Positions 6,393 to 31,986 of a stretch of 64,000 nucleotides of DNA are shown piece by piece. How positions within the stretch are numbered: position 1 is the first letter of the stretch; each line of letters starts with the position of its first letter. The stretch covers positions 262,554 through 326,553 of the forward strand of contig JBAWWL010000002.1 of the NCBI GenBank assembly GCA_037146775.1. Direction: 5' to 3'. The stretch comes from Candidatus Omnitrophota bacterium (lineage in GTDB: Bacteria; Omnitrophota; Gorgyraeia; Duberdicusellales; 4484-171). The notes beneath the pieces were generated by a model that had not been told where the DNA came from, ran no database searches, and saw nothing but the letters and a program-made list of their open reading frames with translations. A program made the position numbers and the translations under genes.

Positions 6393-7667
6393 ATGCCATT
6401 TTTTCTCCTTATAATTTATATAATTGCCGTTTTTATTAGACCTCAGGATTCTATCTCATTTATGCAAGGGTTTCCTCTGGTCAATATTATAACCATACTG
6501 AATCTTTTGTTGGTTTTTATGGGGTTTTCGGCCAAGAAATTGAGTATTCCGCGAGCACCAGAAAATACACTTATGTTAGGATTCTTTTTTGCTATATTAA
6601 TGTCTCACGTAGCAAACACATATTTGGGAGGGTTGATTCTTTCGTTTCAGGAGTTCGGTAAAATTTTAATTTTCTATTTTCTGATAATAATTATTTTAGA
6701 TTCGGTAAATAAAATTAAAATTGTAAGCTGGCTTATTGTACTTTCATCAGTTTATATGGCAATTAATGGTATAATCCAGTTTTATGGGGGATCTGGCATA
6801 CCCGGGACAGCTCCTATCAATGATCACGGCGTAATGCGGATAATCGGCTTAGGAATTTTTTCCGACCCCAACGATTTAGCGCTTCTTTTTATTTTTACTT
6901 TCCCGTTAGTTTTAGCGTTTATTTTTGAAGGGAGAGGATTTTTTCATGCCACTATGGCTATTGTCTGCGGAATTTCGATTGTCTGGGCATTGTGGCTAAC
7001 TAACTCAAGAGGAGGATTATTGGCTTTTATCGTAGCCACAATAATGTTTTTTAGGCTTAGATTCAAGGGAATGAAATGGGTTATATTTGCCATGCTAGCT
7101 GTGGTTATTGCTGTTGCGTTTTTACCTTCCCGCCTTACCGCTGGTTTTTTTGATAAGTCATCTTATGAGCGCGTTATCTACTGGGGTTACGGTAATTGGG
7201 CTTTTAAGTCACATCCGATTTTTGGCGTAGGTTATAATATGCTTTGGCAGTATGCTGCGGATAAAGCTGCACATAATTCTTTTATCCAGTGCTACGCGGA
7301 ACTAGGAATTTTTGGATATTTATTTTGGATAGGCCTTATTTACATTATTTTATACGGTTTATGGAAATTGAGTCTTTACTATAAATCAAAGGCTTATTAT
7401 AAAAGTGACCTTTTTTTATTAGGTGAAGCAATATCTGCTGCTTTTTTTGGTTATTTAACTATCAGTTTATTCTTGAGCCGCACATACATTGTACCATTTT
7501 TTGTTTTTATTGCATTAGCGGTAAAGGTAAGGTTTGTGGCTACGCAAGGAAAATTCTTAGGTGGAGACCTTCTTCCTGCCTATCAAAACCGTAGGATCCT
7601 CGCTATCGGCGTATTAAGTATTCTATTTATGTATATCATGACGCGATTCTTGTTAACGAGGTTTTAA
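6393..7667 (+). CDS. O-antigen ligase/polymerase family membrane protein (Wzy/WaaL-like)
   Basis: Polytopic with >=10 hydrophobic segments; WALWLTNSRGGLLAFIVATIMFF resembles the O-antigen ligase-family periplasmic-loop signature. Confidence 0.6.
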   Translation: MPFFLLIIYIIAVFIRPQDSISFMQGFPLVNIITILNLLLVFMGFSAKKLSIPRAPENTLMLGFFFAILMSHVANTYLGGLILSFQEFGKILIFYFLIIIILDSVNKIKIVSWLIVLSSVYMAINGIIQFYGGSGIPGTAPINDHGVMRIIGLGIFSDPNDLALLFIFTFPLVLAFIFEGRGFFHATMAIVCGISIVWALWLTNSRGGLLAFIVATIMFFRLRFKGMKWVIFAMLAVVIAVAFLPSRLTAGFFDKSSYERVIYWGYGNWAFKSHPIFGVGYNMLWQYAADKAAHNSFIQCYAELGIFGYLFWIGLIYIILYGLWKLSLYYKSKAYYKSDLFLLGEAISAAFFGYLTISLFLSRTYIVPFFVFIALAVKVRFVATQGKFLGGDLLPAYQNRRILAIGVLSILFMYIMTRFLLTRF

Positions 7668-8922: not shown

Positions 8923-9615
8923 ATGATAAGAAAGAAGCTACCCGTATCAATTATTGTTCCTTGTAGAAATGAGGCAAAAAATCTAGAAATACTTCTTCCG
9001 CAGCTAGAAAGCATAGGAGAAGAGCTTATTGTTGTTGATGGTCACTCTCAGGATAATACTAAAGAGTTGGCAATGCGCTATTCCACAAAATTTGTTTTGG
9101 ATAACGGTAAAGGTAAGGGGGACGGTATTCGCGTGGGAATTGCTCACGCAACTAAAGATATCTGCGTGTTTTTAGATGCTGATCTTTCGCATGATCCTTT
9201 AGATATTCCTAAGATGGTCGAGCCGATTTTAACCGGCAAGGCGGATATAGTGTTAGGCTCGCGTATGCGCGGCGGCGGTGACGAGTTTATTGCTACCCCT
9301 CTTATGCTTATTCGACTTTTTGGTAATATGGGCTTGACTTGGTTGATAAATCTTAGATGTAATTCGGCATTGTCAGATAGCCAAAATGGATTTAGAGCAA
9401 TTAAAACATCTTTATTGAGGTCCATTAAACTTATTTCTAATAGGCATACGATTGAATTAGAGATGATTATGCGAGCCCTTCGTTTTGGTGCTCGTGTCGT
9501 AGAAGTACCCGCTCATGAATATCCGCGCAGGTTTGGTGATTCATCTCTTTCGTTAATTGAACAAGGATTTCTTTTTTTATTTGTCTATATTCGTGAGTGT
9601 TTTAGGCCGCTTTAA
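8923..9615 (+). CDS. GT2 polyprenyl-phosphate sugar synthase-like (DPM1/GtrB-like), soluble
   Basis: VSIIVPCRNEAKNLEILL...VVDGHSQDNT...FLDADLSHDP GT-A motifs; 230 aa. Confidence 0.65.
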   Translation: MIRKKLPVSIIVPCRNEAKNLEILLPQLESIGEELIVVDGHSQDNTKELAMRYSTKFVLDNGKGKGDGIRVGIAHATKDICVFLDADLSHDPLDIPKMVEPILTGKADIVLGSRMRGGGDEFIATPLMLIRLFGNMGLTWLINLRCNSALSDSQNGFRAIKTSLLRSIKLISNRHTIELEMIMRALRFGARVVEVPAHEYPRRFGDSSLSLIEQGFLFLFVYIRECFRPL

Positions 9616-9652
9616 TAAATATGTGGTTGATATATAACAGGGGGATGGGGCT

Positions 9653-10582
9653 ATGATTACTTTAGTTATACCATGTTTTAATGAACAAGAAAATCTGCCT
9701 TTACTTTATGAAAAAATTATAAAGGCAGCTGAAGAATGGAAGGAGCCGTTTGAGGTGATTATCATTGATGACGGTTCAAATGATTCTACGTGGGAGATAC
9801 TAAAACAATTTCATACCAAGGATGTCCGGTGGAAAGCTTTGCGATTTTCAAGGAATTTTGGCCATCAAAAAGCCATTTCAGCTGGCTTATTCTATGCTGG
9901 TGGCGATTGCGCAGTTATTTTAGATGCGGATTTGCAGGATTCTCCAGGAGAGGTACGTCGTTTTATAGAGAAATGGAAAGAAGGATACGAAGTTATCTAT
10001 GCGATACGCCTGAAGCGCAAAGAGAATTTTTTTAAAAGAGTAAGTTATAAGATTTTTTATAGAATACTGGGATGCCTGTCTGACATTAAAATTCCTTACG
10101 ATTCTGGCGATTTTTGCCTTATTGACCGTAAGGTTATAGATGTATTGAATAGTATCCGCGAGCAAGACCGTTTTGTGCGCGGTTTACGTGCGTGGATAGG
10201 CTTTCGCCAGGTTGGTATAAAATATGAGCGCAATATACGTCATGCCGGGAAACCAAAATTTACCTTGCGTAAGCTAAAGAACCTTGCCTTTTCCGGAATT
10301 TTTTCTTTCTCGATAGTGCCTTTGCAGATTGCTACTTATTTAGGGCTAATTATCTGCGCTACTACTTTTTTATTAGCTATCTTTTATTTTTTTAAGCATT
10401 TTTCAGTACAGCCACATTATATTTTGATAATTGCTTTTTTTCTGGGTGGCGCCCAATTGCTTTGCTTGGGTGTTCTGGGCGAGTATATAGGCCGTATATA
10501 TAACGAAGTAAGAAACCGGCCATTATGGATAATTAGAGATACGCTGGGTATCAATATAAAAAAGCACTTTAACAGCTTATGA
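9653..10582 (+). CDS. GT2 polyprenyl-phosphate glycosyltransferase (GtrB/ArnC-like) with C-terminal TM helices
   Basis: LVIPCFNEQENLP...IIDDGSNDST...ILDADLQDSP plus two C-terminal hydrophobic helices. Confidence 0.7.
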   Translation: MITLVIPCFNEQENLPLLYEKIIKAAEEWKEPFEVIIIDDGSNDSTWEILKQFHTKDVRWKALRFSRNFGHQKAISAGLFYAGGDCAVILDADLQDSPGEVRRFIEKWKEGYEVIYAIRLKRKENFFKRVSYKIFYRILGCLSDIKIPYDSGDFCLIDRKVIDVLNSIREQDRFVRGLRAWIGFRQVGIKYERNIRHAGKPKFTLRKLKNLAFSGIFSFSIVPLQIATYLGLIICATTFLLAIFYFFKHFSVQPHYILIIAFFLGGAQLLCLGVLGEYIGRIYNEVRNRPLWIIRDTLGINIKKHFNSL

Positions 10583-12360
10583 AAATTCGAATAAATAATT
10601 TTATTACGTGGCGTAAGTCATTTTTTGTTTTTGGAATATTTTTGATTTTTACAGCTATATTCCTTCCAGTAGATTATTTAGTAAATAACGCAATTTCTCC
10701 GCAGATTGCCCAAGAGATAAAAAATCAAGGTATTCCCGGCCGTATGTTAGCATTACAGAATCAATTTAGATTGGGGTTATTATTTTTACGTATTGCTTCT
10801 GTTTTGCTTGGTGGATGGTTGTTAGTTTTAGCCCGTTTCTGGAATTATTTAAAAAAATGGTCATTCGAGACGCTGATAAAAAAGCGCAAAGCTGACTATT
10901 TTGATTCTGATAGTATAGACCTAAGGAAAGAAATTATATTTCCAGGTATTTGTTTTATCTTAGTAATAATAATTTCTGTACCCATACTTTATAAAGGATT
11001 TGATCATTGTGAACTTACTAATTATTTAATGTTAGCTAAGAGAGGTCCGTTGGTTAGCATGGCTTGTCAAAATATGGAGTCTCGTGCCGGTCATCCTGGT
11101 TTTACAGTGGTAGAAAGTATTTTTGTAAAAATTTTAGGGGGTTCAGAAGCTACCGCGAGATTACCGGCTCTTATCTTTGGAGCCTTTGTTATGTTTCCGG
11201 TATATTTCATTGCTCGCAAGTATGGCCCGATTTCTTTTGCGAATTTAGTTTGTTTAGGACTAGCGGCAAACGGATTTTACCTTTTTTATAATACTTATGC
11301 CAGGGGCTACGCTTTTGCGTTAGCAGCGTATATGTTTTGTGTTGCTATAGTGCTTTCGATACGTTTACATCCAAACTGGAATAAATGGGTGTGGCTAGGT
11401 GTTTTTACTATTATTGCCTGTTATTCTCACCAAGGATCAGCGCTGTATCTTAGCTGCTTAATTTTTTTCCTTTTAATTGAACGATACAAAATGGGTGGCA
11501 TGAAATTTTTGGTGCAGCCGGCCATTACGTTAGGAACAGTTATTTTGATTCTATTTTTTCTCTATTCCGTAGCAATTCCTAGTGATTTAAAATATTTAAA
11601 AGAATTTTCAGTAACCAACTATTATCAATCTTACCATATTAACCCGCGTTTGCTTAAAGTTATGGTTGAATCTTGGTCCTGGTTGCGAGGCATGGTTTTT
11701 GTAGGGTGGATTCAGTTTAGTTTATCTACGATAGGAATGGTTTGGCTACTCCGCCGTCGCTTTTGGACTACGATATACTTAGTTGGCCCTGCTGTTATTG
11801 GTATTACAATAATCTGGTCACGGGAATTATATGTTTTTACCCGATATTTTTTGCATTTCTTACCGGTATATGTTTTACTCAGTGTTTTTCCTTTATGGCG
11901 AATTCCCACAAATATTTTAAAAATAAATCGTAGGGTAGCAGAAATATCTCTTGGGCTATTGCTGGTAATTTTTATGACAATATCATTATATCGTATATAT
12001 GCAATGGAGCGCTGTGGGGTGCGGGCTGCAGTTAGTGATGCGCGTAAGCTAATGAGTGCGAATGATCGGGTTATGGCAATCCTCGATGGATATATTACGG
12101 TTAGATATTACTATCCGGAAGTAGTTAATGGATATCGTCACACAAATTTTTGGAAGGAAATTAATAGCGAACAGCCCCCAGAATTTATTATCAATGTTCC
12201 TTATGTTGAGTTTGATATTCCTGGCGGGACTACTGCTATTTTAAAAAAGTATAATCTGGTAAAAAAATATCCGAGTTGGCTTGATGTCGATGACGATCAG
12301 GATTCAATATATCTATATAAATTAAAAATGAAAAATGAAAAACAAAGAATTAATAATTAA
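10579..12360 (+). CDS. polytopic membrane protein, putative GT-C-fold glycosyltransferase
   Basis: 593 aa with many hydrophobic segments; lies between a GtrB-like GT2 and a PMT/ArnT-like gene. Confidence 0.4.
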   Translation: MKIRINNFITWRKSFFVFGIFLIFTAIFLPVDYLVNNAISPQIAQEIKNQGIPGRMLALQNQFRLGLLFLRIASVLLGGWLLVLARFWNYLKKWSFETLIKKRKADYFDSDSIDLRKEIIFPGICFILVIIISVPILYKGFDHCELTNYLMLAKRGPLVSMACQNMESRAGHPGFTVVESIFVKILGGSEATARLPALIFGAFVMFPVYFIARKYGPISFANLVCLGLAANGFYLFYNTYARGYAFALAAYMFCVAIVLSIRLHPNWNKWVWLGVFTIIACYSHQGSALYLSCLIFFLLIERYKMGGMKFLVQPAITLGTVILILFFLYSVAIPSDLKYLKEFSVTNYYQSYHINPRLLKVMVESWSWLRGMVFVGWIQFSLSTIGMVWLLRRRFWTTIYLVGPAVIGITIIWSRELYVFTRYFLHFLPVYVLLSVFPLWRIPTNILKINRRVAEISLGLLLVIFMTISLYRIYAMERCGVRAAVSDARKLMSANDRVMAILDGYITVRYYYPEVVNGYRHTNFWKEINSEQPPEFIINVPYVEFDIPGGTTAILKKYNLVKKYPSWLDVDDDQDSIYLYKLKMKNEKQRINN

Positions 12361-14227
12361 GCAAAAAGGCTTTTTAAGCCACGAGCAACTAACTGAATGT
12401 ATCTTATTTAGCTTAGTTGCAATGATTATCCGTTTAATTTATGTTGCAATGATTACTGCAAAATATGGAGCTGGCCAGCATAGCGATTTTTTGTATATGC
12501 ACCAGTTAGCCCAATCGCTTGCGCAAGGCCTGGGTTTTACTATTGATGGAGTATGGATTTTTAACCAATCACCAGGGTATCCTGTCTTTGTGAGTATTTT
12601 TTATAAAATAATAGACGCGAAATTAATGATTGCGTTTGCGCTCAACATAGTCCTTGGAGCGTTGAGCGTGGCATTGCTTTATATCCTGGCAATATATATG
12701 TTTTCAATATTCAAGCCAGCAAAAGATTCGTATTTTGGAATAGAGGAATCAATTGCTCGTTGTTCTTGTGCGCTTGCTATTATTTACCCTGATAGCCTCC
12801 TATATTGCGCCTATTTTGCTGCCGAGAATCTTTTAATTCCGTTAATTATCTTATTCGTTATTTTTGTTATTAGAGATTGGAGAACTGAATGGTTGGCTGG
12901 TATATTTATAGGGGCGGTTGGAGTTATAATGGCTCAAACCAAAGCATATACGCTTGTATTATGCTTATTTGCACCTTTAATATGGAAGATTCGTGGCCAG
13001 CGCGTTATATACCGTAGTTTAATAGCGATAATTACCGCAGTAGTTATTTTAGCGCCCTGGGCATATCTTAATTATAAAGCTTCCGGAGGAAGAATTGTTC
13101 CTTTTGGTGCATCATTTGGAACAACTTTCTTAGACGGCAACAATCTCCGCGCCAGTGGTAAGCCGACAAATCTTTATTGTTTGCCTGAGAAAGTCGAGAT
13201 TGGCCGTGATGAAATTGAGCTTAATCGATTAAGGCTAAATAAAGCTTTATCATATATTAATGCTAATCCCGGATGGTTTGCGAAACTGACGCTTAAGAAA
13301 TTTTTATTATCTTTTTCTCCGGTGCGGGATTATTTATTTCAAAATAATAATGAAGAACGCCTATTTGCCCCGCTAGTAAGCCGTTGGGTTCCCACTATTT
13401 TTAATACAATATTGCTGTTTGGAATAATAGTTGGGATTATATTTACGTACAAAAAAAAAGAAATTTTTATCGTTGGTTTTTGCTTACTATTGTCTGCCCT
13501 TTTAATCCAATTAGTTTTTTTTGCTTATCCGCGCTATAGATTTCCTTTCTTATTCGCCCTAATTCCTTTCTCGGCCCTTGGCTATATTATGCTTGTAAGT
13601 TTACTGCGTAGCAAACCTCTATTTAAAAATAGCAATCATAAAAAAATAGATTTTTCAAAATATTATAATAGTAAATTTTCTAACTTATTATTTCGCTGGA
13701 TAGATTGGCAAAAAATAACTTTGCTTAAAAGGATTATATCAATTTATAAACCTAAGATTATTGTTGAGTTAGGATCAGGTACTGGGCTTATATCTTCTAA
13801 ATTGCCAGCAAAAATTTTCTGTCTTGAACTTAATCCTGAGCTTGCAAAATTATCTAAAAAAAACGGTATTGTTAGCTGTCAGGCTGATTTAGAAGGTAGG
13901 TTGCCGCTGCGCTCTTCTTCTGCAGAAATGGTTTTCCTGGTTGATAGCATCGAGCACGTTCAAAACCGAGATTTGCTATTTGATGAACTTAAGCGGATAC
14001 TTAAGCCGCAAGGACTGCTTATTATATTTACTCCACCGTATGATTCATTACGTTGGATATTTGCTGAAAAGATACACTTTGCACTTTTACGTAACCCAGC
14101 CGGACATGCTTCTCCCTACACGGAAGAATCTTTACGTTATTTTCTCTCAAAAGGGTTTGAGCAGATAGATATTCGCCGTCTGAATTTTAATTTGACTATG
14201 TGCGCTATGGCGCGCAAAACAGTATAA
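12335..14227 (+). CDS. GT-C (PMT/ArnT-like) membrane glycosyltransferase fused to a class I SAM methyltransferase
   Basis: N-terminal IRLIYVAMITAKYGAGQHSDFLYMHQLAQSLAQGLGFT is PMT/ArnT-like; C-terminal VELGSGTGLIS...LKPQGLLIIFTP are methyltransferase motifs I and post-I. Confidence 0.55.
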   Translation: MKNKELIIKQKGFLSHEQLTECILFSLVAMIIRLIYVAMITAKYGAGQHSDFLYMHQLAQSLAQGLGFTIDGVWIFNQSPGYPVFVSIFYKIIDAKLMIAFALNIVLGALSVALLYILAIYMFSIFKPAKDSYFGIEESIARCSCALAIIYPDSLLYCAYFAAENLLIPLIILFVIFVIRDWRTEWLAGIFIGAVGVIMAQTKAYTLVLCLFAPLIWKIRGQRVIYRSLIAIITAVVILAPWAYLNYKASGGRIVPFGASFGTTFLDGNNLRASGKPTNLYCLPEKVEIGRDEIELNRLRLNKALSYINANPGWFAKLTLKKFLLSFSPVRDYLFQNNNEERLFAPLVSRWVPTIFNTILLFGIIVGIIFTYKKKEIFIVGFCLLLSALLIQLVFFAYPRYRFPFLFALIPFSALGYIMLVSLLRSKPLFKNSNHKKIDFSKYYNSKFSNLLFRWIDWQKITLLKRIISIYKPKIIVELGSGTGLISSKLPAKIFCLELNPELAKLSKKNGIVSCQADLEGRLPLRSSSAEMVFLVDSIEHVQNRDLLFDELKRILKPQGLLIIFTPPYDSLRWIFAEKIHFALLRNPAGHASPYTEESLRYFLSKGFEQIDIRRLNFNLTMCAMARKTV

Positions 14228-14236
14228 ACTAAATGC

Positions 14237-15358
14237 TTGAAGGTGGAAAAGATTAACGTCTTACATGTAGTGCAAACGCTTGATGTCGGCGGGCTTGAGC
14301 GAGTCGTCGTTGATTCCTTTAAATATTACGACAGAAACAAGTTTAATTTTACTGTTTGTTGTTTGAGTGAAGAAGGCATATTGGCAGGAGAATTAAAAAG
14401 ATTGCGCATGGAACCGGTTTTTTTAAACAAGCGAAATGGTCTTGATTTTAGCATAAGCTGCAGAATAATGCAGCTAATTAAAAAAAATGACATTAATATT
14501 CTTCACACCCATAATCAACGGCCTTTGTTTTACGGGGCCATTGCTGCAAGGACGAGTGATTTATTGGCCTATGTGCATACTAGACACGGCCGAAATGATC
14601 CGGATAGTTTTAAAAATGTTCTTATAAACAAATTCTTTAGCTCTTTCGCCGACAGGGTTGTGTGTGTTTCTCGGGATATCTATGAAATCGCGCGCAAGAA
14701 AGAGGGTTTGCCATTGAGTAAGATCGAAGTAATAAGAAATGGCATTGATATAAGTAAATTTGCGTCAATAAAGACAAAAGATAAGTTGCTACTTGCGAAA
14801 TTGGGAATTAAAGAAGGTTCGTTTGTAATTGGTACCGTGGGTAGGCTCTCGCGGATCAAGAATCACACCTTGTTGATAGATGCTTTCAAGAATTTATCTG
14901 CAAAATATTCTAGGGCTATTCTTTTGGTGGTAGGAGACGGCCCCGAAGCACCAAGATTAAAAAAAATTGTCCAAGAGTATGGTTTAACCGAAAAAATTTT
15001 ATTTTTGGGAGAACAAACTGATGTGTCTGCGTCGCTCGGTTTATTTGATATTTTTGTTTTACCTTCATTATCCGAAGGTATTTCTTTGGTGTTGATTGAA
15101 GCTATGGCTGCTGGTTTGCCTATAGTTGCTACCAACGTAGGCGGTAATTCAGAAGTTATTAGTGACGGTGAGAACGGTTTCCTTGTTTCTTCAGGTGATA
15201 CAGCGGCTTTAAGTAATGCCATAGCGCGATTACTAGAGGATGAGGGTTTACGACGGCGCCTTTCGGACGCCAACCGTCATAAAGCGACACAAGAGTTTAA
15301 TATCCAGGTAATGTGTAAAAAATACGAAGAGTTATATACTGCATTAGCGGGGAATTAG
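14237..15358 (+). CDS. glycosyltransferase family 4
   Basis: EGISLVLIEAMAAGLPIVATNVGGNSEVISDGENGFLV; TTG start. Confidence 0.75.
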   Translation: MKVEKINVLHVVQTLDVGGLERVVVDSFKYYDRNKFNFTVCCLSEEGILAGELKRLRMEPVFLNKRNGLDFSISCRIMQLIKKNDINILHTHNQRPLFYGAIAARTSDLLAYVHTRHGRNDPDSFKNVLINKFFSSFADRVVCVSRDIYEIARKKEGLPLSKIEVIRNGIDISKFASIKTKDKLLLAKLGIKEGSFVIGTVGRLSRIKNHTLLIDAFKNLSAKYSRAILLVVGDGPEAPRLKKIVQEYGLTEKILFLGEQTDVSASLGLFDIFVLPSLSEGISLVLIEAMAAGLPIVATNVGGNSEVISDGENGFLVSSGDTAALSNAIARLLEDEGLRRRLSDANRHKATQEFNIQVMCKKYEELYTALAGN

Positions 15359-15360
15359 AT

Positions 15361-15385
15361 GAGGGGTCGAATTGATTGACCCCTC
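15361..15385 (+). other. perfect 8-bp stem hairpin (GAGGGGTC-gaattgatt-GACCCCTC) between the GT4 gene and the GIY-YIG gene
   Basis: Read directly; no U-tract follows. Confidence 0.5.
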
Positions 15386-15774
15386 ATCCTGAGCGTAGCG
15401 AAGGATCTCTAACGGTGAGTAAAGATAAACATCAAGCCGGATATGTATACATCCTAACAAATAGAGGGAATTCGGTTTTGTATACTGGGGCCACAACCAA
15501 TTTGCTTAAAAGAGTTTTCCAGCACAGACAGAGATATCTATCTGGATTCACAAAGCGATATAATTTAAGCAAGTTGGCATATTACGAGGTCTTTATTGAT
15601 ATGGTCAGCGCTCGCGTAAGAGAGCGCAAGATAAAAGGCTGGAAGCGAGGGAGGAAGATAAGTTTAATAGAATCGATGAATCCGATGTGGGAAGATCTCT
15701 ATAATGGATTAGTAAGAGATCCTTCGTCCTTGCGGACTCAGGATGACCCCTTGCTTATTGAAAAAACACCCTAA
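15376..15774 (+). CDS. GIY-YIG nuclease family protein
   Basis: GYVYILTNRGNSVLYTGATTNLLKRVFQH is a GIY-YIG motif; the true start may be GTG near 15415, because the 5' end overlaps a hairpin. Confidence 0.65.
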   Translation: MTPHPERSEGSLTVSKDKHQAGYVYILTNRGNSVLYTGATTNLLKRVFQHRQRYLSGFTKRYNLSKLAYYEVFIDMVSARVRERKIKGWKRGRKISLIESMNPMWEDLYNGLVRDPSSLRTQDDPLLIEKTP

Positions 15775-15786
15775 GGGTTCAATTAT

Positions 15787-16950
15787 ATGAGTTTTATTAT
15801 TCTTTTATTAATCTTTTTATTTTTATTTTTTCTCACAACTATAATTCTGAAAAAGAAAATGCAATATTGGTTTTTTTCTTACGCTAAAACATTTTTTATC
15901 AAAAAAAATAGCACCAATAAACAAAAACCTACAGATATAATATTTTGTCTGGTAGATCATTTTGAGCCAAGTTTTAGAACTAAAGAGGTTACAGTGCAAA
16001 AAAGTAGAGTGGACCGATGGTTAGAAGAATTTCCTCTTTTTTCTGTAACACATCGTGATGGCGATGGTTGTATGCCCAAGCACACTTGGTTTTTCTCGCC
16101 GCATGAAGACACCGAAGATCATCTTGAGCGTCTGACTGGTCTTTGTAAACAAGGCTATGGAGAAATAGAATTACATATGCATCACGACCGTATTTTACCT
16201 TTTCCCGATACATCGGAGACTTTCGAGAGAAAAATCAGGGAAGCCACCGATAGGTACGCGTTGTTAGGCTTATTCGGAAAAGATAACCGTGATGATAAGC
16301 GTAAATTTGGTTTTGTCCACGGCGATTGGGCGCTAGATAATTCAAGAGGAGGAAAATTTTGCGGTATCAATAATGAGTTGCAAATTTTAGCAAAATGTGG
16401 ATGCTACGCTGATTTTACCTTTCCTTCTATTTGTGAATCGCAGCCGCAAAAAATTAATTCTATATATTATGCTTTCGACGATCCGCGGAGGCCAAAATCC
16501 TACGATAGGGGTATTTCGGTAAAGGTTGGGAAGAAAAAATGTGGTGATTTAATGATTATTCAAGGTCCTTTGGGTTTGCATTCAAAGCCCTACAGGCGCT
16601 GGCCGTTTATCGCTATAGAGTCTGCTAATATCTCTTTGACTGATTTACCTTATCCATCAAGGGTCGATTTTTGGGCCAAAACCGGGATAGGAGTGGAAGA
16701 TAAACAAGAATGGATATTCATAAAAGTGCATACCCATGGTGCGTATGAGCCTAATGCTGATGTGCTTTTGGGTGAGCATATGCATACAATGCATTCTTAT
16801 TTAGAAAGCAAATATAACGATGGAATAAATTTCAGATTGCATTATGTTACCGCGCGAGAGCTTTATAATATTGTTAAAGCAGCAGAGAGCGGAGAAATAG
16901 GAAATCCTAGCCAGTTTAGAGATTACTATATTGACAAGCCGCCGTTGTAG
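15787..16950 (+). CDS. hypothetical protein with N-terminal TM anchor
   Basis: 387-aa ORF; His/Asp-rich patches (DHFEP, HMHHD) suggest a metal-dependent hydrolase but no family could be assigned. Confidence 0.3.
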   Translation: MSFIILLLIFLFLFFLTTIILKKKMQYWFFSYAKTFFIKKNSTNKQKPTDIIFCLVDHFEPSFRTKEVTVQKSRVDRWLEEFPLFSVTHRDGDGCMPKHTWFFSPHEDTEDHLERLTGLCKQGYGEIELHMHHDRILPFPDTSETFERKIREATDRYALLGLFGKDNRDDKRKFGFVHGDWALDNSRGGKFCGINNELQILAKCGCYADFTFPSICESQPQKINSIYYAFDDPRRPKSYDRGISVKVGKKKCGDLMIIQGPLGLHSKPYRRWPFIAIESANISLTDLPYPSRVDFWAKTGIGVEDKQEWIFIKVHTHGAYEPNADVLLGEHMHTMHSYLESKYNDGINFRLHYVTARELYNIVKAAESGEIGNPSQFRDYYIDKPPL

Positions 16951-18181: not shown

Positions 18182-20073
18182 TAGGGTTTATTAATTCGAA
18201 GAGATTGGCTTCTGTCGAGGCGGTAGGAATACTTCAAAAAATGGCCGATGAGATCAATTATCGCGGTCCTGATGATGATGGTTATTTTGCCGATGCTACT
18301 ATGTGCCTAGGGATGAAGCGGCTATCTATTATTGATTTAAAAAGCGGCCATCAGCCGATGTTTACAGATAGCGGCAGTATTGTCATAGTTTATAATGGCG
18401 AGGTATATAATTTTAAGGAACTACGTGTCGAGCTTGAGGCAAAGGGAACATGTTTTAGAACGACGAGCGATACAGAAGTGGTCTTAAAGATGTATGAGCA
18501 TTACGGAATAGATTCATTTACGAGATTGAACGGTATGTTTGCTCTTGCTGTGTATGATAAACTTAGTCAAAAACTTGTACTTTGCCGTGATCCAATAGGC
18601 ATAAAGCCACTCTATTACTTTTGGGATGGTTATTCTTTTATGTTTGCCTCAGAAATAAAAGCGATACTTAAACATCCCATGGCGGCGTCAAGAAAGGTGA
18701 ATTTATCCGCAGTGTGGGATTACCTTACTTATGAGTATGTGCCTGCTCCAAAGACGATATTTGATAATATCTATAAGCTCTTGCCTGGACATTTCATTGA
18801 AATTAATTTGAAGGATTTAGCGTTTAACGTTGTAAAGTATTGGGATTTTCCGTTAACACACAATGATAATATAAGTGAAGAGGAATGTAATGAGCGTTTC
18901 GGTTCTCTTTTTGTAGATGCAGTAAATCGCCAAATGGTTGCGGATGTTCCGGTGGGTATTTTCTTAAGTGGCGGCTTAGACTCAAGTGCGGTGACGCTTG
19001 TTGCGTCCCAGTTGAGCGCTACACGTATAAAAACTTTTTGCGTGGGATTCGAAGAAGGCACGCTTACCGATGAAGCTGCATACGCTCGGGAGGTGGCAGG
19101 TTTTTTGGGAACGGATCATAAGGAGTTCATTGCTAACTCAAAAGAATTTTTTAAATTCATTCCGGAATTTGTTTACCTGATGGACGAACCAAACGCGGAT
19201 ATGGCGACTATAGGCAAATACTTTGCTTGTAAGCTTGCCTCCGAACACGTTAAGGTGGTTTTGTCTGGTGACGGTGGCGATGAGATGCTTTGCGGTTACC
19301 GGTTCAATGAGGCAATGCAGCGTATGAGAGAACAGGAGTGTTTACAGAAATTACCACGAAAGTTGGTTAAAGATTCCCCTTTATCGCTATTTAAGCTTAT
19401 GGGGAGAGAAGATTTATACAGGCGTTGGGAAAGAATGTTTATTCCTTTAAGACAAAGAGGACAATTTGCTTTACCTAGCATGACAAAGCGGTTTACTGAG
19501 AACGATAAAAAAGAACTTTTTAAAGAAATACCAAGTGGGGTTCGAGATAGTTTAAAAATTCTTTCTGAAGATTTCAAAAAAGCCGAAACCTTAGATCCGC
19601 TTACACAGATTCAGTATGCTTGGAGTAAGCAGTGGTTGGCAGAGCATTTATTAATGGAAGCGGACAGAATGAGCATGGCCGTATCATTAGAATTAAGGGT
19701 TCCTTTTTTAGATGTTGAGCTAGTAAAATTTCTATTTTCTGTTCCCGATAAATTGAAGGTGCGTAAAGTTAAGGGCAGATATCAGACAAAATATTTATTA
19801 CGACAATTTCTTAAGGGGCGTGTGCCTCGTTCAGTGCTTACGCGGCCAAAAAGAGGCTTCCAGGTGCCGAATATTCGGTTTGTCCGAAACGATTTGGCAA
19901 GTCATATTTCGGATGTTCTTCTTGATTCTGATTCCCGAGTTGCCGCGTTAATGAATAGAGACGTGGTTATGCAATGGATAAAACGTTCATATTCTGACGC
20001 GTATGGTATGGCGTATCAAAAGGTATGGATATTATATATTCTTGAGATATGGTTGCGTCAGTGGTGCCAATGA
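18169..20073 (+). CDS. asnB: asparagine synthase (glutamine-hydrolysing)-type amidotransferase
   Basis: MCGIVGF Ntn nucleophile Cys2, SGGLDSS PP-loop; 634 aa. Confidence 0.85.
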   Translation: MCGIVGFINSKRLASVEAVGILQKMADEINYRGPDDDGYFADATMCLGMKRLSIIDLKSGHQPMFTDSGSIVIVYNGEVYNFKELRVELEAKGTCFRTTSDTEVVLKMYEHYGIDSFTRLNGMFALAVYDKLSQKLVLCRDPIGIKPLYYFWDGYSFMFASEIKAILKHPMAASRKVNLSAVWDYLTYEYVPAPKTIFDNIYKLLPGHFIEINLKDLAFNVVKYWDFPLTHNDNISEEECNERFGSLFVDAVNRQMVADVPVGIFLSGGLDSSAVTLVASQLSATRIKTFCVGFEEGTLTDEAAYAREVAGFLGTDHKEFIANSKEFFKFIPEFVYLMDEPNADMATIGKYFACKLASEHVKVVLSGDGGDEMLCGYRFNEAMQRMREQECLQKLPRKLVKDSPLSLFKLMGREDLYRRWERMFIPLRQRGQFALPSMTKRFTENDKKELFKEIPSGVRDSLKILSEDFKKAETLDPLTQIQYAWSKQWLAEHLLMEADRMSMAVSLELRVPFLDVELVKFLFSVPDKLKVRKVKGRYQTKYLLRQFLKGRVPRSVLTRPKRGFQVPNIRFVRNDLASHISDVLLDSDSRVAALMNRDVVMQWIKRSYSDAYGMAYQKVWILYILEIWLRQWCQ

Positions 20074-20074
20074 C

Positions 20075-20824
20075 ATGATGAGTGAGCCAAAGTATACTGA
20101 TAATTTCTATCAAGACCTGATTAATAGTTCTCATAAGTCTGCCGCTAAGATTGTTCCTCTAGTTATGGATTTAGTTGCGCCAAAGTCGGTTGTCGATGTG
20201 GGATGTGGGGTTGGAGTGTGGTTATCTATCTTTCGCAAACATGGCGTGGAAGACTTTTTGGGTATAGATGGCTCATGGGTTAATAAAAAGTACCTCCAGA
20301 TTCCCGCCGACAGGTTTTTAGCTCACGATTTAAGGTTACCTCTCACAGTTAACAGAAGATTTGACCTGGTGGTGTCCCTGGAGGCTGCAGAACACGTACC
20401 GTCAGAATGTGCCGAAATTTTTATTAACAGCCTTGTTAGTTTTGGGCCAGTTGTTCTTTTCTCTGCGGCAATTCCCTCGCAGGGAGGCATAGGTCACATT
20501 AATGAACAATGGCCTGATTATTGGGCGAAATACTTTCGTATAAAGGGGTATGTCGTTGTTGATTATTTACGAGGGGCAATTTGGAATGAGAAGGTTTCGC
20601 CGATATACGCTCAAAATATTTTACTCTTTATTGATGAGAAATATCTTAAGGGTCAGCCGGCTTTAGCGGAAGCGTATAAGAAAACAGATGTTGCAACTTT
20701 GTGCCGTGTGCATCCGGAATTTTATGCATATCGAATTAATCCCGAAAACATGTCGTTACGAGAATTATTGCACGCTTTTCCTGCTGTCTTAAGAGAGTAT
20801 ATAGTGCGTAAACTAAAAAGATGA
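20075..20824 (+). CDS. class I SAM-dependent methyltransferase
   Basis: VVDVGCGVGVW motif I; ATG at 20075 follows the asnB stop; the ORF-track start at 20003 is an over-extension. Confidence 0.6.
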   Translation: MMSEPKYTDNFYQDLINSSHKSAAKIVPLVMDLVAPKSVVDVGCGVGVWLSIFRKHGVEDFLGIDGSWVNKKYLQIPADRFLAHDLRLPLTVNRRFDLVVSLEAAEHVPSECAEIFINSLVSFGPVVLFSAAIPSQGGIGHINEQWPDYWAKYFRIKGYVVVDYLRGAIWNEKVSPIYAQNILLFIDEKYLKGQPALAEAYKKTDVATLCRVHPEFYAYRINPENMSLRELLHAFPAVLREYIVRKLKR

Positions 20825-21695
20825 AATATTCTTCCTTGGTTTCGGCGATACAGTATTACGGCTATCCATTCCCCAATCATTTCGGCAAATGGTGGTTGCA
20901 TGCGCGATTGCGTAAAGTTTTTAAGATTACGATTAACGAGGATATGGTGGTTGAGCGTGGTGGTTTACGTTGGATTCTTAATCCTTCTGATTATGTCCAA
21001 TCCGAACTTTTTTGGTTGGGGTTGAGGGATAGATGGAATAGCTATCATGTAAAAAATATTATTAAACCGGCAAATACTATTTTAGATATTGGTGCTAATT
21101 TTGGTTATTATTCTATCATTTGTGCATCTTCTTTGAAAGGGAACTGCCGAGTTTATGCTTTCGAGCCCAATTCACCTTCGTTTAATCGTCTGAAGAAGAA
21201 CATTGAGCTCAACTCTCTGGAGGGTTCTGTTACGGCCGCATGTGTGTAGGTTTTGCAAATACCAACTCAACAGCATATATATCTGAGCCAGTTGGTAATA
21301 GCGGAGCGGCAATCATTGTTAATAAGAAAGGAGATAGAAGTGTTACGCTTTATAGGCTGGATGATTTTTGTTGCGATAGGAAAATCGATAAGATAGATTT
21401 TTTGAAAATTGATGTTGAAGGTTTTGAGCGATATGTTTTAGAGGGAGGGAAAGAAACATTAAAAAAATCCAGACCGGTGATGTTAATTGAATTAAATCCT
21501 GTCGCATTGGCAAAAAATAGCCAGTCGGTCCTTGAGCTCGTTGAGTTTATAAAACATAATGGATATGTATTATATGAGGTAATGAGGACAAAACTTAAAT
21601 TACTCACGCATCTGCCCGGCGGTGAAGATCATATAGATGCGTTTTGTTTTCCCAGGGAAAAGATAGAGCCATTTAAAAAAGAAGGTGTAATATGA
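20821..21695 (+). pseudogene. FkbM-family methyltransferase, split by a frameshift at a (TG)n run
   Basis: The first ORF, ending at 21249, has ILDIGANFGYYSII; the second, starting at 21240, has IDFLKIDVEGFERYVLEGG; together they make about 290 aa, typical for FkbM. The break lies in tgtgtgt at 21241-21247. Confidence 0.55.
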
Positions 21696-22414
21696 AAAAC
21701 AAAACTTTTGTGCAGAAAGTGAAAAATGGTCAGCCGCCGTTTTATTCTCTTATTAAATCTGCAGTTTTATTTATTTTAAACTTCAGGATTCCTTTGTTCT
21801 GGCCGCTGACATGGTTTTATAGAGCATTGTATTTCTTTCATGTCTTTCTGAGAGAGTCCGTGGTAGTTCTCTTAAAAATAATTTATTTTGAGCCAATGAT
21901 TCGGGCTGTATGTGTCAAGGTTGGTCGAAACTTACGTTTAGAAAAGTTGCCGTATATAGTGGGCAATGGTTCAATTGAACTTGGCGATAATGTACGTATC
22001 TCCGGCCGTATAGACATCGGTTTTAATAATCGTTTTGGGCACACGCCTCAATTTATCGTAGGAAACAATGTTTTTATCGGGTGCCTCTGTGGTTTTGCTG
22101 CAGCAAAGAAAATAGAAATTGGTAATAACTGCTATCTTGCTTCAGGGGTTAAGATTTTTGATAATGACGGGCATCCTTTAGATCCCCAAAAGAGAAGACA
22201 GGGTGAACCCGTATCTATTGAAGACGTACAATCGGTAAAGTTATGCGATAATGTTTGGGTTGGAACAGGAGGGGTTATTCTAAAAGGAGTTACTATAGGA
22301 GAGAATTCAGTTGTAGGTGCCGGTTCCATTATCACTAAAGATGTCCCGGCAAATACTATCGTTGCTGGTAACCCCGCAAGAATCATAAAGGTAATTAACC
22401 AAGATGCTTCGTAA
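21692..22414 (+). CDS. hexapeptide-repeat (LbH) acyl/acetyltransferase
   Basis: NVWVGTGGVILKGVTIGENSVVGAGSIITKDVPANTIVAGNPARIIK are hexapeptide repeats. Confidence 0.7.
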   Translation: MKNKTFVQKVKNGQPPFYSLIKSAVLFILNFRIPLFWPLTWFYRALYFFHVFLRESVVVLLKIIYFEPMIRAVCVKVGRNLRLEKLPYIVGNGSIELGDNVRISGRIDIGFNNRFGHTPQFIVGNNVFIGCLCGFAAAKKIEIGNNCYLASGVKIFDNDGHPLDPQKRRQGEPVSIEDVQSVKLCDNVWVGTGGVILKGVTIGENSVVGAGSIITKDVPANTIVAGNPARIIKVINQDAS

Positions 22415-23600
22415 TAGAAATATAATATACTTTTCAAATGATTGGAATACGGATCACAAGGTAAGCAGCCATCATATTGCTAAAGAACTTCTAAAGAATA
22501 ACAGGCTTATTTATGTAGAGACAGGAGGAATGCGTAAACCGAAGGCTTCTTCAAGAGACTTGAGACGCATATTTTTTCGATTAGTTTCTTGGTTACGAGG
22601 AATTCAAAAAATAGACGATAACCTATACATTTACCCGCTTATTATTTTTCCTTTTCATCAAAAATTGGCTCGCAGCCTAAATATATATTTGAATGTTTTT
22701 ATCTTGCGTAGAGCTATTAAGAAGTATAAATTTAAAGACCCAATTCTTTGGTTTGTAACCCCACATGTTTCTTATCTCGCCAATTACCTTCCTAAAAAAT
22801 TTACGGTATATTATTCAACAGATAATGTTTCTCTGGCGCCAGGGGTTGATCAAAAGGCTATTGAATGCTTGGAAAATGATTTATTGCATAAAGCTGATGT
22901 GGTTTTTGGTACCTCAGAATATTTATGTGATAGGTTAAGAAAAAAGAATATCAATCATCATATTTTTTATTCTCCCCAGGCAGTTAATGTAGAACATTTT
23001 TCCAGCGTTCAAAAAAATAATACTTCTCTTGCCGAGGAGATTAAAAATTTGAAGAAACCCGTAATTGGCTATATCGGGCTGATAGAAGAATGGATTGATT
23101 TAGATTTAATTGGGTATATTGCGAAATCGCGGCCAGAATGGTCAATAGCGCTAATTGGTAGAGTAGCTGTTTCTGTAGAAAATCTTAAGCGATTTGCCAA
23201 TATAAAATTTCTCGGAATTAAACAATACGAAGATTTACCTTCTTATTTAAAAGGATTTGATGTTTGTATTTCGCCGTTTAAGATTAATGAATTCACCAAA
23301 GGGGTCAACCCGATCAAGATAAAAGAATATTTGGCTTCAGGAAAGCCGGTAGTTTCAACACACCTTCCGGAGATGGAGAGGTTTAAAGATTTTATTGAGA
23401 TAGCAGATTCATATGAAGACTTTGTTCAAAAGATTGACCAATTTTTAAGCTATGATGATAGTGGTAAAATTACCAAAAGGATGGAATCGGTAAAAAATGA
23501 TAACTGGCAGAATCGGGCAGAAAAGATTTCAGAAATTATTGAAGAAATAGAGAGACTTACTATAAACAGACAATATTTATCAAAAGATTCCAGTGATTAG
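22404..23600 (+). CDS. glycosyltransferase, GT-B fold (GT1-like)
   Basis: C-terminal GYIGLIEEWIDLDLI...KFLGIKQYEDLPSYLKGFDVCISPF...IKEYLASGKPVVST; weak. Confidence 0.5.
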   Translation: MLRNRNIIYFSNDWNTDHKVSSHHIAKELLKNNRLIYVETGGMRKPKASSRDLRRIFFRLVSWLRGIQKIDDNLYIYPLIIFPFHQKLARSLNIYLNVFILRRAIKKYKFKDPILWFVTPHVSYLANYLPKKFTVYYSTDNVSLAPGVDQKAIECLENDLLHKADVVFGTSEYLCDRLRKKNINHHIFYSPQAVNVEHFSSVQKNNTSLAEEIKNLKKPVIGYIGLIEEWIDLDLIGYIAKSRPEWSIALIGRVAVSVENLKRFANIKFLGIKQYEDLPSYLKGFDVCISPFKINEFTKGVNPIKIKEYLASGKPVVSTHLPEMERFKDFIEIADSYEDFVQKIDQFLSYDDSGKITKRMESVKNDNWQNRAEKISEIIEEIERLTINRQYLSKDSSD

Positions 23601-23674
23601 ATTTAGATTGCAGTGATTAAAAATCACCGTAATCATCCCATAATCGCTGTAATCATTTTATAAGAGGGGGCTAA

Positions 23675-24802: not shown

Positions 24803-24826
24803 GGGTTTTATCGGGGATGAGCTGAA

Positions 24827-25942: not shown

Positions 25943-26016
25943 TAATGTCGGGTGCAAGATAGGCTAAATTATTAACAACATAAATTCGAAAACGAAAGAA
26001 GAAATAAGTGATTTAA

Positions 26017-26439: not shown

Positions 26440-26444
26440 AAATA

Positions 26445-28320: not shown

Positions 28321-28352
28321 CTTTGGAAATTTTTCAAAACCCTGCTTAATTT

Positions 28353-30475: not shown

Positions 30476-30479
30476 TGCA

Positions 30480-31958: not shown

Positions 31959-31986
31959 GATATTTTTCAAGATTATATTTATTTTA

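Follow-up and report, generated by a model that had tools for sequence, protein, structure and literature searches.

The logic of ArnC/ArnD/ArnT is shared by LgmA/LgmC/LgmB and FlmF2/NaxD/FlmK, and the Pgf system of Streptococcus mutans (PgfS, PgfM1, PgfE, PgfM2) groups a single GT2 synthase with a pair of polytopic membrane proteins. In the Arn pathway for the aminoarabinose modification of lipid A, a GT2 enzyme loads undecaprenyl phosphate, a separate enzyme modifies the lipid-linked monosaccharide at the cytoplasmic face, the bactoprenyl-phosphate sugar thus being modified before flipping, and a GT-C enzyme carries out the transfer in the periplasm (PMC8495848). In the dolichol-phosphate-based pathway of Haloferax, which includes the SAM methyltransferase AglP, a separately carried mannose is delivered by AglD, AglR and AglS (PMC3871713).

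The 64,000-nt stretch of DNA analysed here (the window), from an uncultured Omnitrophota bacterium, contains four consecutive genes, A to D. We propose, with a probability of roughly 0.55, that they form a module for extracytoplasmic (periplasmic) glycan decoration in which the lipid-linked sugar is methylated at the cytoplasmic face before its transfer by D. [quoted passage not shown] After flipping, the outer-face acidic residues of C (Glu145) and D (Asp51) would place the sugars on a periplasmic acceptor glycan. The MT substrate, the sugar and the acceptor of this module are inferred, as is the cytoplasmic location of the MT. Elsewhere this MT has a gene of its own nearby; its fusion to D suggests that methylated sugars may be added by a route not yet described.

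The proposed order of loading, modification and transfer is that of the Arn pathway; in addition, A and B match ArnC, and ArnT is the best structural match of D. However, the modifier is a SAM methyltransferase fused to the GT-C enzyme instead of a deformylase or deacetylase, the GT-C part of D (~420 aa, 10 predicted TM helices) has neither the periplasmic domain of ArnT nor detectable sequence similarity to it, and the acceptor is probably a polysaccharide and not lipid A. With the Gtr-type three-component systems (GtrA/GtrB/GtrC; CsbB/GtcA/YfhO; pentofuranose, PMC11127046) the locus shares a GtrB-type synthase (B) and neighbouring polytopic GT-C proteins in or beside a polysaccharide locus, but it has two synthases and two GT-C proteins, together with an MT that is absent from the described three-component scheme. 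Unlike both kinds of system, no flippase gene of the GtrA or ArnE/F type was found when the window was searched.

The resemblance to systems made of DPMS plus a PMT/AglS-type enzyme (Ppm1-Pmt; Haloferax AglD/AglS) lies in A, which is nearest to archaeal DPMS and AglJ, and in the relatives of D that match Pfam PMT_2 and PMT. In the Haloferax pathway, too, a glycan bound to its carrier is the substrate of a SAM methyltransferase (PMC3871713), although the target of AglP is the hexuronic acid of a lipid-linked oligosaccharide, in contrast to the carrier-linked monosaccharide donor proposed here. Unlike archaeal DPMS, A lacks a TM anchor; unlike PMT, D lacks a MIR domain and is not a family-level relative of GT39; and the acceptor is probably not a protein. 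Finally, B, C and D recall the one GT2 and two polytopic proteins of Pgf, PgfS being the top curated-family match of B. Nevertheless, B scored 249 bits, under the equivalog cut-off of 500, the locus has no PgfE epimerase, Pgf has no methyltransferase and, unlike the module proposed here, it acts on proteins.

Organization of the locus and its surroundings

Table 1. Features of the A-D locus and selected neighbouring genes (positions in the window)
Feature	Position	Strand	Description
Gene A	8923-9615	+	230 aa, GT2
Gene B	9653-10582	+	309 aa, GT2
Gene C	10579-12360	+	593 aa, GT-C
Gene D	12335-14227	+	630 aa, GT-C::SAM methyltransferase (MT)
D N-terminal domain (aa 1-426), minimal GT-C	12335-13612	+	Homologues and AF2/Foldseek
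D linker, short and basic (SKPLFKNSNHKK), from last TM helix to MT	13613-13648	+	Low pLDDT; kept in P0002
D C-terminal domain (aa 439-630), class I SAM-dependent MT	13649-14227	+	Methyltransf_11
Wzy/O-antigen-ligase-like polymerase (context)	6393-7667	+	Wzy_C 3.1e-16; PEP_O_lig_1 1.3e-16, below cut-off
GT4 glycosyltransferase, next gene 3' of D	14237-15358	+	Glycos_transf_1 6.7e-47
Wzx-type flippase of the cluster	30480-31958	+	Polysacc_synt_3 1.3e-79

The gaps between A and B (37 nt), B and C (-4), C and D (-26) and D and the GT4 gene (9 nt) are tiny or overlapping, and the five genes were therefore read as a single operon. GT4 orthologues were also present 3' of D in the loci L001 (49% identity) and L004 (46%). 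The module is located within a Wzx/Wzy-type surface-polysaccharide cluster spanning roughly 1-40 kb of the window. Besides Wzy and Wzx, this cluster carries numerous GT4 and GT2 genes and no fewer than six further MT genes. By NCBIfam, genes near the module have an XrtA/PEP-CTERM flavour.

Glycosylation of proteins by C and/or D in a PMT- or streptococcal Pgf-like manner (e.g. of Ser/Thr-rich envelope proteins), instead of polysaccharide, appears quite improbable in this setting. Among the loci with a homologous module, Wzy, Wzx, GT4 and GT2 genes surround it in the window, L002, L004, L006 and L011. Moreover, the ORFs of the window that were scanned included neither an exosortase gene nor one for an evident Ser/Thr-rich target, and D has no MIR, TPR or other periplasmic domain for acceptor binding. 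What speaks for proteins as acceptors is the best NCBIfam match of B (PgfS, 5.6e-74, below cut-off), the XrtA/PEP-CTERM flavour of the nearby genes and the A-D pair of Roseisolibacter, which sits outside polysaccharide clusters. Systems of a GtrB-type synthase plus a GT-C enzyme that glycosylate Ser/Thr-rich regions have also been described (PMC12041528).

Glycosyltransferases A to D

Genes A and B had been presented in a preliminary description as two consecutive DPM1/GtrB-like GT2 genes, and both bore this out, with PF00535 (Glycos_transf_2) matches of 1e-24 for A and 1.7e-33 for B. The nearest PDB entry to A was the Pyrococcus dolichol-phosphate-mannose synthase (5mlz, E 2.2e-18, residues 5-227), followed by ArnC (~1e-11), and B matched Synechocystis GtrB sll0501 over its full length (5ekp, E 7.7e-79), ArnC being again the next. 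Among the NCBIfam models, A matched AglJ (1.6e-33) and PpgS (1.5e-15), and B matched ArnC (1.9e-50) after PgfS, none of these matches reaching the cut-off. Two C-terminal TM helices (~215-251 and 254-277) are present in B, and no TM segment was predicted in A. Hence, judging from sequence, A is presumed to be a peripheral polyprenyl-phosphate hexose synthase related to DPMS, AglJ and PpgS, and B a presumed undecaprenyl-phosphate glycosyltransferase of the GtrB/ArnC/PgfS type. Among the loci compared, an orthologue of B occurred only in L002/L003 (53% identity).

The two polytopic proteins encoded after the GT2 pair had been assigned to the GT-C enzymes, in agreement with their AF2 models, whose top-ranked Foldseek matches in the PDB were exclusively of this class (ArnT, PglB, AglB, ALG3/9/12, Pmt4, Emb, Aft). 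Protein C scored 25.6 bits against PMT_2, just short of the gathering score of 26.1. It has ~13 TM helices, and the best 40 PDB matches of its model (pLDDT 85.6, pTM 0.87) were all GT-C, with PglB first (1.6e-7) and then ArnT and ALG12. Conserved residues in the alignment were E145, E190, R194 and R422, the near-invariant Glu145 being located in a catalytic-type loop after the third TM helix (KGFDHCE). The small C-terminal alpha/beta domain (~481-593) is presumably periplasmic. Homologues of C share contigs with homologues of D.

The N-terminal domain of D had been called PMT/ArnT-like, which was overstated, as no Pfam match of its own reached the threshold; its GT-C character was sustained by homologues and structure prediction. 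It has 19 stand-alone homologues of 383-439 aa, and PF13231 (PMT_2) was matched, at best with 1e-9, by 13 of the 22 proteins of alignment A1 (D, 20 close homologues and the distant P0022). The AF2 model of D, with pLDDT mostly >90 over residues 20-420, gave GT-C proteins as its top 19 PDB matches in Foldseek, ArnT (4e-5) preceding PglB and AglB. Retention of the GT-C loop acid had been set beforehand as a test, and a near-invariant Asp51, right after TM1 in the first outer loop, was found aligned with Glu145 of C.

SAM and NDP-sugars occur only in the cytoplasm, and fused D-type proteins are known with an MT as well as with a GT2 behind the last TM helix, which would place the C-terminus of D in the cytoplasm. 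From this cofactor logic and from charge bias we infer 10 TM helices with both termini cytoplasmic (N-in/C-in), since the basic loops then fit and all the conserved polar residues come to lie on the outer face. The conserved residues of this predicted face are D51, G81-Y82-P83, Y151-P152-D153-S154, E164-N165, K203 and R400-Y401-R402.

The near-invariant D51, YPDS, EN, K203 and RYR, which all fall on the predicted outer face, where the active site of a GT-C enzyme and its phosphate-binding pocket would be expected, make it highly improbable that D is non-catalytic, i.e. a GT-C-like scaffold or lipid-linked-sugar translocator (cf. the non-catalytic PIGU) that anchors A and the MT to the membrane and leaves C as the sole transferase. 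Such a role would suit the presence of PIGU at ranks 7-9 of the Foldseek matches of D, the lack of a periplasmic domain in D and the fact that no dedicated flippase gene was found in the window. Nevertheless, A-D pairs occur without C in L005/7, L009/10 and L011-13, and D must therefore suffice as transferase at these loci.

The methyltransferase and its linkage to A and D

The fusion of D, in frame, to a class I SAM methyltransferase with the motif VELGSGTGLIS was recovered as first reported: residues 478-564 matched Methyltransf_11 (2.1e-13, 51.2 bits vs a GA of 21.2), and the motif occupies residues 477-487 (nt 13763-13795). By sequence comparison, this MT falls into a separate family of proteins of ~200 aa with the motifs DFSKYY, FRWIDWQK, ELGSGTG, VDSIEH, FTPPYDS, GHASPYTEE and LNFNL. 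It retains 15/15 invariant columns of the family alignment and shares 38% identity (E 7e-41) with the 193-aa MT encoded separately in L002; with solved or curated families, the match was limited to the generic SAM-binding core. AF2 confidence was low for the MT domain; in the linker region, pLDDT was low over residues 428-458. D and P0002 are conserved across the linker and into the beginning of the MT, and the positive charge of the linker agrees with the cytoplasmic side, where the MT probably lies.

On other contigs, the most constant partner of the MT was the A-type GT2. In every locus with adequate flank, the D-type GT-C gene was preceded by an A-type gene at a distance of no more than two genes, the two directly adjoining in 5 of the 8 distinct loci, and orthologues of A were 67-71% identical in L004, L005/7, L009/10 and L013. 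The order A-MT-B-C-x-D was found in L002/3, A-MT-D in L011/12 (with overlapping ORFs) and L019, and the A-MT pair in L018 and L020/21; in L017 A and MT are adjacent and divergent. Fusions were also observed between an A-type GT2 and the MT (P0110) and between a D-like protein and an A-type GT2 (P0107, beside which lies an MT::GT2 fusion). A distant PMT_2::MT fusion (P0124) has a GT2 gene adjacent, and a distant PMT_2::MT fusion is present in two further assemblies. Because of this separate-gene adjacency and these reciprocal fusions, A, MT and D were considered a recurrent triad. The A-D pairs of L004, L005/7, L006, L009/10 and L013 had no MT orthologue in the stretch examined, and methylation is therefore an optional accessory. 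Synteny and reciprocal fusions also strengthened the earlier suggestion that the sugar may be methylated by the same polypeptide that bears the GT-C domain.

A possible, though unlikely, alternative is that the module works as proposed but the MT acts on the nucleotide sugar of A, or, at the cytoplasmic face, on the growing glycan or the repeat unit carried by Und-PP, linkage and fusions then reflecting co-localisation or co-regulation only. The cluster is rich in further methyltransferases that modify the same polymer, so the fused MT could modify the repeat unit instead, and homology gives no reading of its substrate specificity. The stages at which sugar methyltransferases usually work also fit, since O-methylation often follows glycosyl transfer and N- and C-methylation takes place on the NDP-sugar. 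In contrast, the MT adjoins the A-type GT2 specifically, even in contigs of unrelated context, MT fusions exist both to the A-type GT2 and to the D-type GT-C, and attachment to a membrane protein would make little sense for a soluble enzyme that modifies an NDP-sugar.

Authenticity and rarity of the fusion

The single ORF of D runs through without interruption, and an identical 630-aa protein is annotated by NCBI on a 327,864-bp contig of a Candidatus Omnitrophota MAG. The same junction and linker were found in P0002 (626 aa, 50% identical to D), which comes from an independent metagenome assembly (SRR24236060). This recurrence with a conserved linker indicates that the fusion is not due to a frameshift or missed stop codon, a doubt raised when it was first noticed. 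An assembly, frameshift or missed-stop artefact, to which the MAG origin of the sequence and the unfused state of most homologues might point, has a next to negligible likelihood, given also the distant fusions in two more assemblies. Furthermore, simple read-through cannot generate the fusion, because the unfused MT lies upstream, near A, and not downstream of D.

The fusion had been called unusual, and the database survey agreed: among the best 150 matches from 1.84 billion representatives searched, one close and one distant fused representative were present. Free-standing MT orthologues form ~30 clusters. The GT-C::MT fusion is rare, and the separate MT gene is the commoner arrangement.

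The gene block and its GT2 enzymes

The four consecutive genes that the preliminary description had placed at 8923-14227 were recovered as + strand ORFs with exactly those limits. They encode a GT2 similar to dolichol-phosphate-mannose synthase (DPMS) (A), a GtrB-like GT2 (B), a predicted GT-C membrane protein (C) and a predicted GT-C protein fused to a class I SAM methyltransferase (D). The methyltransferase domain of D (residues 439-630) and its free-standing relatives are referred to as MT. The genes are separated by 37, -4 and -26 nt, and the following gene starts 9 nt after D, so that the block is packed like an operon. It lies in a long, co-directional cluster of surface-polysaccharide type (about 1-40 kb of the window), which also contains many GT4 and GT2 genes, an AsnB-type amidotransferase, a UDP-GlcNAc 2-epimerase, a DegT aminotransferase, two radical-SAM enzymes and at least six methyltransferase genes besides the MT of D. 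Several cluster genes matched XrtA/PEP-CTERM-associated models, all below threshold, and tRNA and Rfam scans found no tRNA or Rfam family in the window.

Positions of the gene block, of cluster members and of other features in the window
Feature	Position	Strand	Remarks
Wzy/O-antigen-ligase-like gene	6393-7667		cluster member
A	8923-9615	+	230 aa ORF
B	9653-10582	+	309 aa ORF
C	10579-12360	+	593 aa ORF
D	12335-14227	+	630 aa ORF
GIY-YIG nuclease-domain ORF	15376-15774	+	132 aa; PF01541 1.9e-12
ORF without Pfam or NCBIfam match	15787-16950	+	387 aa
Methyltransferase-dense region	20003-33346	+	methyltransferase genes starting at 20003, 21240, 27562, 28353, 31921 and 32699; radical-SAM enzymes at 24827 (SPASM type) and 29165 (B12-binding type)
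Wzx flippase	30480-31958		cluster member
Protein with N-terminal GT2 domain	33325-35505	+	726 aa
Small multi-TM ORF	40346-40708		no family
AbiEii toxin-family gene	44209-44931
Holin-superfamily-IV-like ORF	63215-63556		4 TM; PF04020 1e-30

A and B had been correctly described as a DPM1/GtrB-like GT2 pair, A matching DPMS and B matching GtrB over the full length. Among solved structures, A was closest to the dolichol-phosphate-mannose synthase of Pyrococcus (5mlz, residues 5-227, E 2.2e-18) and next closest to ArnC; the homology to DPMS and AglJ covers the full-length GT-A domain, including the C-terminal interface region. The best curated models for A were AglJ, a haloarchaeal dolichyl-phosphate hexose transferase (1.6e-33 over residues 8-216; 116 bits, well below the 325-bit equivalog cut-off), and PpgS, all under their equivalog cut-offs. 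Polyprenyl phosphate is the presumed acceptor of A, which has no transmembrane segment. B was aligned with Synechocystis GtrB sll0501 (E 7.7e-79, residues 2-301) and with ArnC (about 1e-44), and, as is typical of the GtrB type, has two TM helices at its C-terminus.

Fold, catalytic loop and topology of C and D

On Pfam PMT_2 (PF13231), C scored 25.6 bits against a gathering threshold (GA) of 26.1. The N-terminal 430 residues of D gave no match in Pfam (E <= 0.01) or NCBIfam, and HMM profile searches returned no solved relatives for the D or the C family. Homologue searches provided 16 relatives of C and 19 stand-alone relatives of the membrane domain of D (383-439 aa, 39-47% identity), several of them with PMT_2. 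This model was matched by 13 of the 22 proteins of the D alignment (best 1e-9), and P0124, a distant fused relative, matched both PMT_2 (7e-20) and PMT (3e-10).

AlphaFold models built from these homologue alignments were of high confidence in the membrane parts: residues 20-420 of D mostly exceeded a pLDDT of 90, and C had a mean pLDDT of 85.6 (pTM 0.87). In Foldseek searches against the PDB, the top 19 matches of the D model were all GT-C enzymes, led by ArnT and PglB (4e-5 each, probability 1.0) and including AglB, PIGU, ALG9/3/12, Pmt4, AftB, DPY19, AftA and Pmt1/2, with TM-scores of only 0.3-0.46. The top 40 matches of the C model were likewise all GT-C, with PglB first (1.6e-7), ArnT, ALG12, STT3, ALG9, AftA, Pmt4 and Emb among the others, and TM-scores up to 0.60. 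The models thus agree with the earlier view of C and D as GT-C membrane enzymes; since the TM-scores are modest (0.3-0.6), this predicted assignment holds only at the level of the GT-C superfamily (ArnT/PMT/STT3-like, GT-C_A). The module does not belong to GT39 or GT83 at family level.

The conserved acid of the catalytic Asp/Glu loop, a feature bearing on the GT-C assignment and expected in the first extracytoplasmic loop, behind the first core TM helix, is present in both proteins. In D, Asp51 (HSDFLYMHQLA) lies a few residues past TM1 and is kept in at least 90% of 22 sequences; it is followed by an invariant G81-Y82-P83 where TM2 starts. Its equivalent in C is Glu145 (KGFDHCE), past the third helix and kept in at least 90% of 18 sequences. 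D also conserves the polar motifs YPDS (151-154), EN (164-165), K203 and RYR (400-402), and C conserves E190/R194/P196 and R422. Alignment of the two families with hhalign was weak (E 0.002, probability 13%) yet colinear, pairing D51 with E145 and the RYR region of D with R422 of C. A non-catalytic role for D, whose loop acid is near-invariant, is very improbable.

Hydropathy, the helices of the AF2 model and the charge distribution are compatible with 10 TM helices in D, with the N and C termini inside. Helix 136-158, which bears YPDS, would then be an outer-face juxtamembrane element, and D51, YPDS, EN, K203 and RYR would all be on the outer face. Basic residues cluster at the N-terminus, at 177-187, 217-227 and 368-377, and in the linker after TM10. 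D-type proteins can carry either a SAM-dependent MT or an NDP-sugar-dependent GT2 behind their last TM helix, which argues independently that this terminus is cytoplasmic. An 11-TM layout with a periplasmic C-terminus, in which 136-158 is counted as a TM helix, was rejected, because the basic loops would fall outside, the conserved polar residues would be split between the two faces and the SAM- and NDP-sugar-dependent domains would be periplasmic. C appears to have 13 TM helices plus a small C-terminal alpha/beta domain, which would be periplasmic.

The GT-C::methyltransferase fusion and related loci

The possibility that the fusion is an artefact of a missed stop codon or a frameshift is hardly credible. 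D is one uninterrupted ORF, and NCBI lists an identical protein of 630 aa, annotated on a contig of 327,864 bp from a Candidatus Omnitrophota MAG. A close fused relative from the unrelated run SRR24236060 (P0002, 626 aa) is 50% identical to D across both domains and shares the junction NH..(I/V)DFS.YYN....N.LFRWIDWQKI. The C-terminal domain of D opens with the N-terminal motif of free-standing MTs (F..YY, FRWxDxxK), indicating that an entire MT gene was grafted cleanly about 12 residues past the last TM. Where the MT is unfused, its gene is found upstream, close to A, and not downstream of D; hence, read-through cannot create the architecture of D.

The fusion is as unusual as had been supposed: P0002 was the sole close fused form among the best 150 matches in 1.84 billion 50%-identity representatives. 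These 150 also included P0124 (632 aa, 27% identity), a distant PMT_2::Methyltransf_11 fusion found in two assemblies beside GT2 and GT9 genes. At the P0124 locus L015 (GCA_028713125.1; 2518-5045, 6988-10986) a second pair, a free MT of 240 aa and a PMT_2 protein of 602 aa, lies upstream. The gene after the fusion is of the GT9 (heptosyltransferase) family, a hint that LPS core may serve as acceptor at this locus. Neither a GT-C::methyltransferase fusion nor an A-MT-D triad was found described in the open-access literature.

Scans of species-representative genomes and metagenome contigs gave only 2 and 6 loci, so that co-occurrence statistics rest on few independent contexts. With paired contigs counted as one, eight distinct related loci were compared: L002/3, L004, L005/7 (Roseisolibacter, Gemmatimonadota), L006 (a Kiritimatiellae MAG), L009/10, L011/12, L013 and L019. 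In every related locus with enough flank, the D-type GT-C was preceded by an A-type GT2 at a distance of at most two genes; in five of the eight the two were direct neighbours. The module was found in poorly known phyla (Omnitrophota, Kiritimatiellae, Gemmatimonadota). A was 67-71% identical in L004, L005/7, L009/10 and L013, whereas the adjacent D was only 40-48% identical, which suggests that A is under very strong constraint or was horizontally transferred. C accompanied D, without B, in about half of the loci, and B was present only in the window and L002/3. Small four-helix-bundle ORFs resembling 23S_rRNA_IVP / bAvd were seen within the glycosylation clusters of L002 (9691-9954, 3794-4171) and L003 (5357-5620), one of which directly separates the C-like gene from the D-like gene.

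As a separate gene, MT was found between A and D in L011/12 (overlapping ORFs) and L019, between A and B in L002/3 (38% identity, E 7e-41), directly after an A-type GT2 in L018 and L020/21, and divergently adjacent to one in L017. Many A-D pairs lack MT, so methylation would be an accessory step. A tie between MT and B (both in the window and L002/3, both absent in L004 and L005) was considered and dropped, since A-MT-D occurs without B in L011/12 and L019, and A-MT without B in L018 and L020/21. A 221-aa methyltransferase beside A in L004 was also rejected as an orthologue of the domain of D (E 0.001 over 52 residues only).

MT is fused to an A-type GT2 in P0110 (425 aa), and a D-type GT-C is fused to an A-type GT2 in P0107 (658 aa), which has an MT::GT2 fusion next to it. 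Each of the three possible pairs of GT2(A), MT and GT-C(D) thus occurs as a fusion, which is classic Rosetta-stone evidence for a single functional unit. P0107 and the adjacency of A and D suggest D as a possible membrane partner of A; the constant presence of an A-type GT2 nearby, together with P0107, points indirectly to an outer-face polyprenyl-phosphate-sugar donor for D. The short P0107 contig (JGI 3300042731), on which the MT::GT2 protein has 464 aa, also carries an AsnB gene, an epimerase and a 603-aa protein without Pfam match that resembles C in length; the contig has the look of a compact form of the module with two fusions.

Possible role of the methyltransferase and other features of the cluster

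The MT of D matched PF08241 (Methyltransf_11) with 51.2 bits (GA 21.2) and has a Rossmann-like core; the motif VELGSGTGLIS, noted earlier, was located at residues 477-487, with the SAM-binding ELGSGTG at 478-484. When the MT domain alone was the query, a word-index search for homologues gave no match; the exhaustive representative search used in its place returned about 30 clusters of free-standing MTs (195-250 aa, 32-45% identical to the C-terminal domain of D). Fifteen columns of the family alignment are invariant and all are kept in D, among them GxG (SAM motif I), D..EH, TP.Y, H..P...E and a C-terminal N. Matches to solved and curated families were confined to the generic SAM-binding core (profile positions 34-139), so the substrate cannot be read from homology.

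In the route proposed here, A and B would load sugar onto polyprenyl phosphate at the cytoplasmic face, and the MT, tethered to the membrane through D, would methylate the A-derived lipid-linked sugar. The donor would then be flipped across the membrane, and the sugar would be moved to a polysaccharide in the periplasm by D, and by C for its own donor. Homology argues strongly for charging by A and B and for transfer by D and C. Methylation of the lipid-linked sugar is suggested by gene linkage, by the fusions and by two precedents, the Arn pathway, in which the bactoprenyl-phosphate sugar is modified before flipping (PMC8495848), and the Haloferax Agl pathway, with the AglP methyltransferase alongside the AglD/AglS DolP-mannose branch (PMC3871713).

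A further-reaching reading, tentatively held at a probability of roughly 0.35, is that the dedicated ~200-aa MT family methylates a polyprenyl-phosphate monosaccharide, that this methylated donor is used by a minimal 10-TM GT-C whose two termini are cytoplasmic, and that A, MT and D form one complex. The three pairwise fusions hint at such a physical complex, which could channel, and perhaps translocate, the donor without a GtrA-type flippase. Of the three Gtr components, the GtrB-type one is present as B and polytopic GT-C transferases as C and D, whereas no small multi-TM ORF for a GtrA- or ArnE/F-type flippase was found within the window, its only small multi-TM candidates having no family or belonging to the holin family. 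A flippase gene may lie in another part of the genome. The module is comparable to Gtr or Arn extracytoplasmic glycosylation and differs by the extra methyltransferase, no methylation step being found in the literature on three-component systems.

Methylated sugars are common in surface glycans, both environmental and from pathogens. To our knowledge, the known sugar-methylation routes are all cytoplasmic and act on nucleotide sugars or on growing chains. An NDP-sugar or an Und-PP repeat unit may instead be the substrate of the MT, an alternative that we regard as possible, if doubtful. Proteins as acceptors are improbable for this block, which lies in a cluster of surface-polysaccharide type.

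If true, the lipid-linked route would be a previously undescribed way by which the surface glycans of bacteria receive O-methyl sugars from outside the cytoplasm, the GT2/MT/GT-C triad bringing methylation into periplasmic decoration by lipid carriers, a widespread scheme. From the reciprocal fusions, donor synthesis seems to be physically coupled with donor use across the membrane. An A-type GT2 beside an MT (FRWxDxxK, FTPPYDS), together with a ~420-aa GT-C, would provide a simple genomic signature for methyl-sugar side branches, and the D-type GT-C, unusually small with its predicted 10 TM helices and no periplasmic domain, would be attractive for structural work. The interest for glycobiologists is moderate, lying in the predictive signature and the compact GT-C; conceptually the scheme is not surprising.

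Elsewhere in the cluster, the unusual density of methyltransferase genes, together with the two radical-SAM enzymes, indicates that a heavily methylated glycan is probably made. The GIY-YIG ORF lies within the polysaccharide operon, with a GT4 gene on one side and a conserved gene of unknown function on the other, an odd setting for a nuclease domain. The 387-aa ORF is kept near the A/C/D module in other phyla (L004 14739-15878, 61-63% identity; L006 18863-19954 and L011 17221-18165, about 41%) and, judged from these relatives, is an uncharacterised regular companion of such clusters. In the 726-aa protein the GT2 domain is confined to the first ~180 residues, the other ~540 having no family. 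The AbiEii and holin-like genes (see the table) were also recorded, and the G+C content climbs from about 0.36 to 0.41-0.47 past roughly 46 kb, where the low-GC glycan cluster ends.
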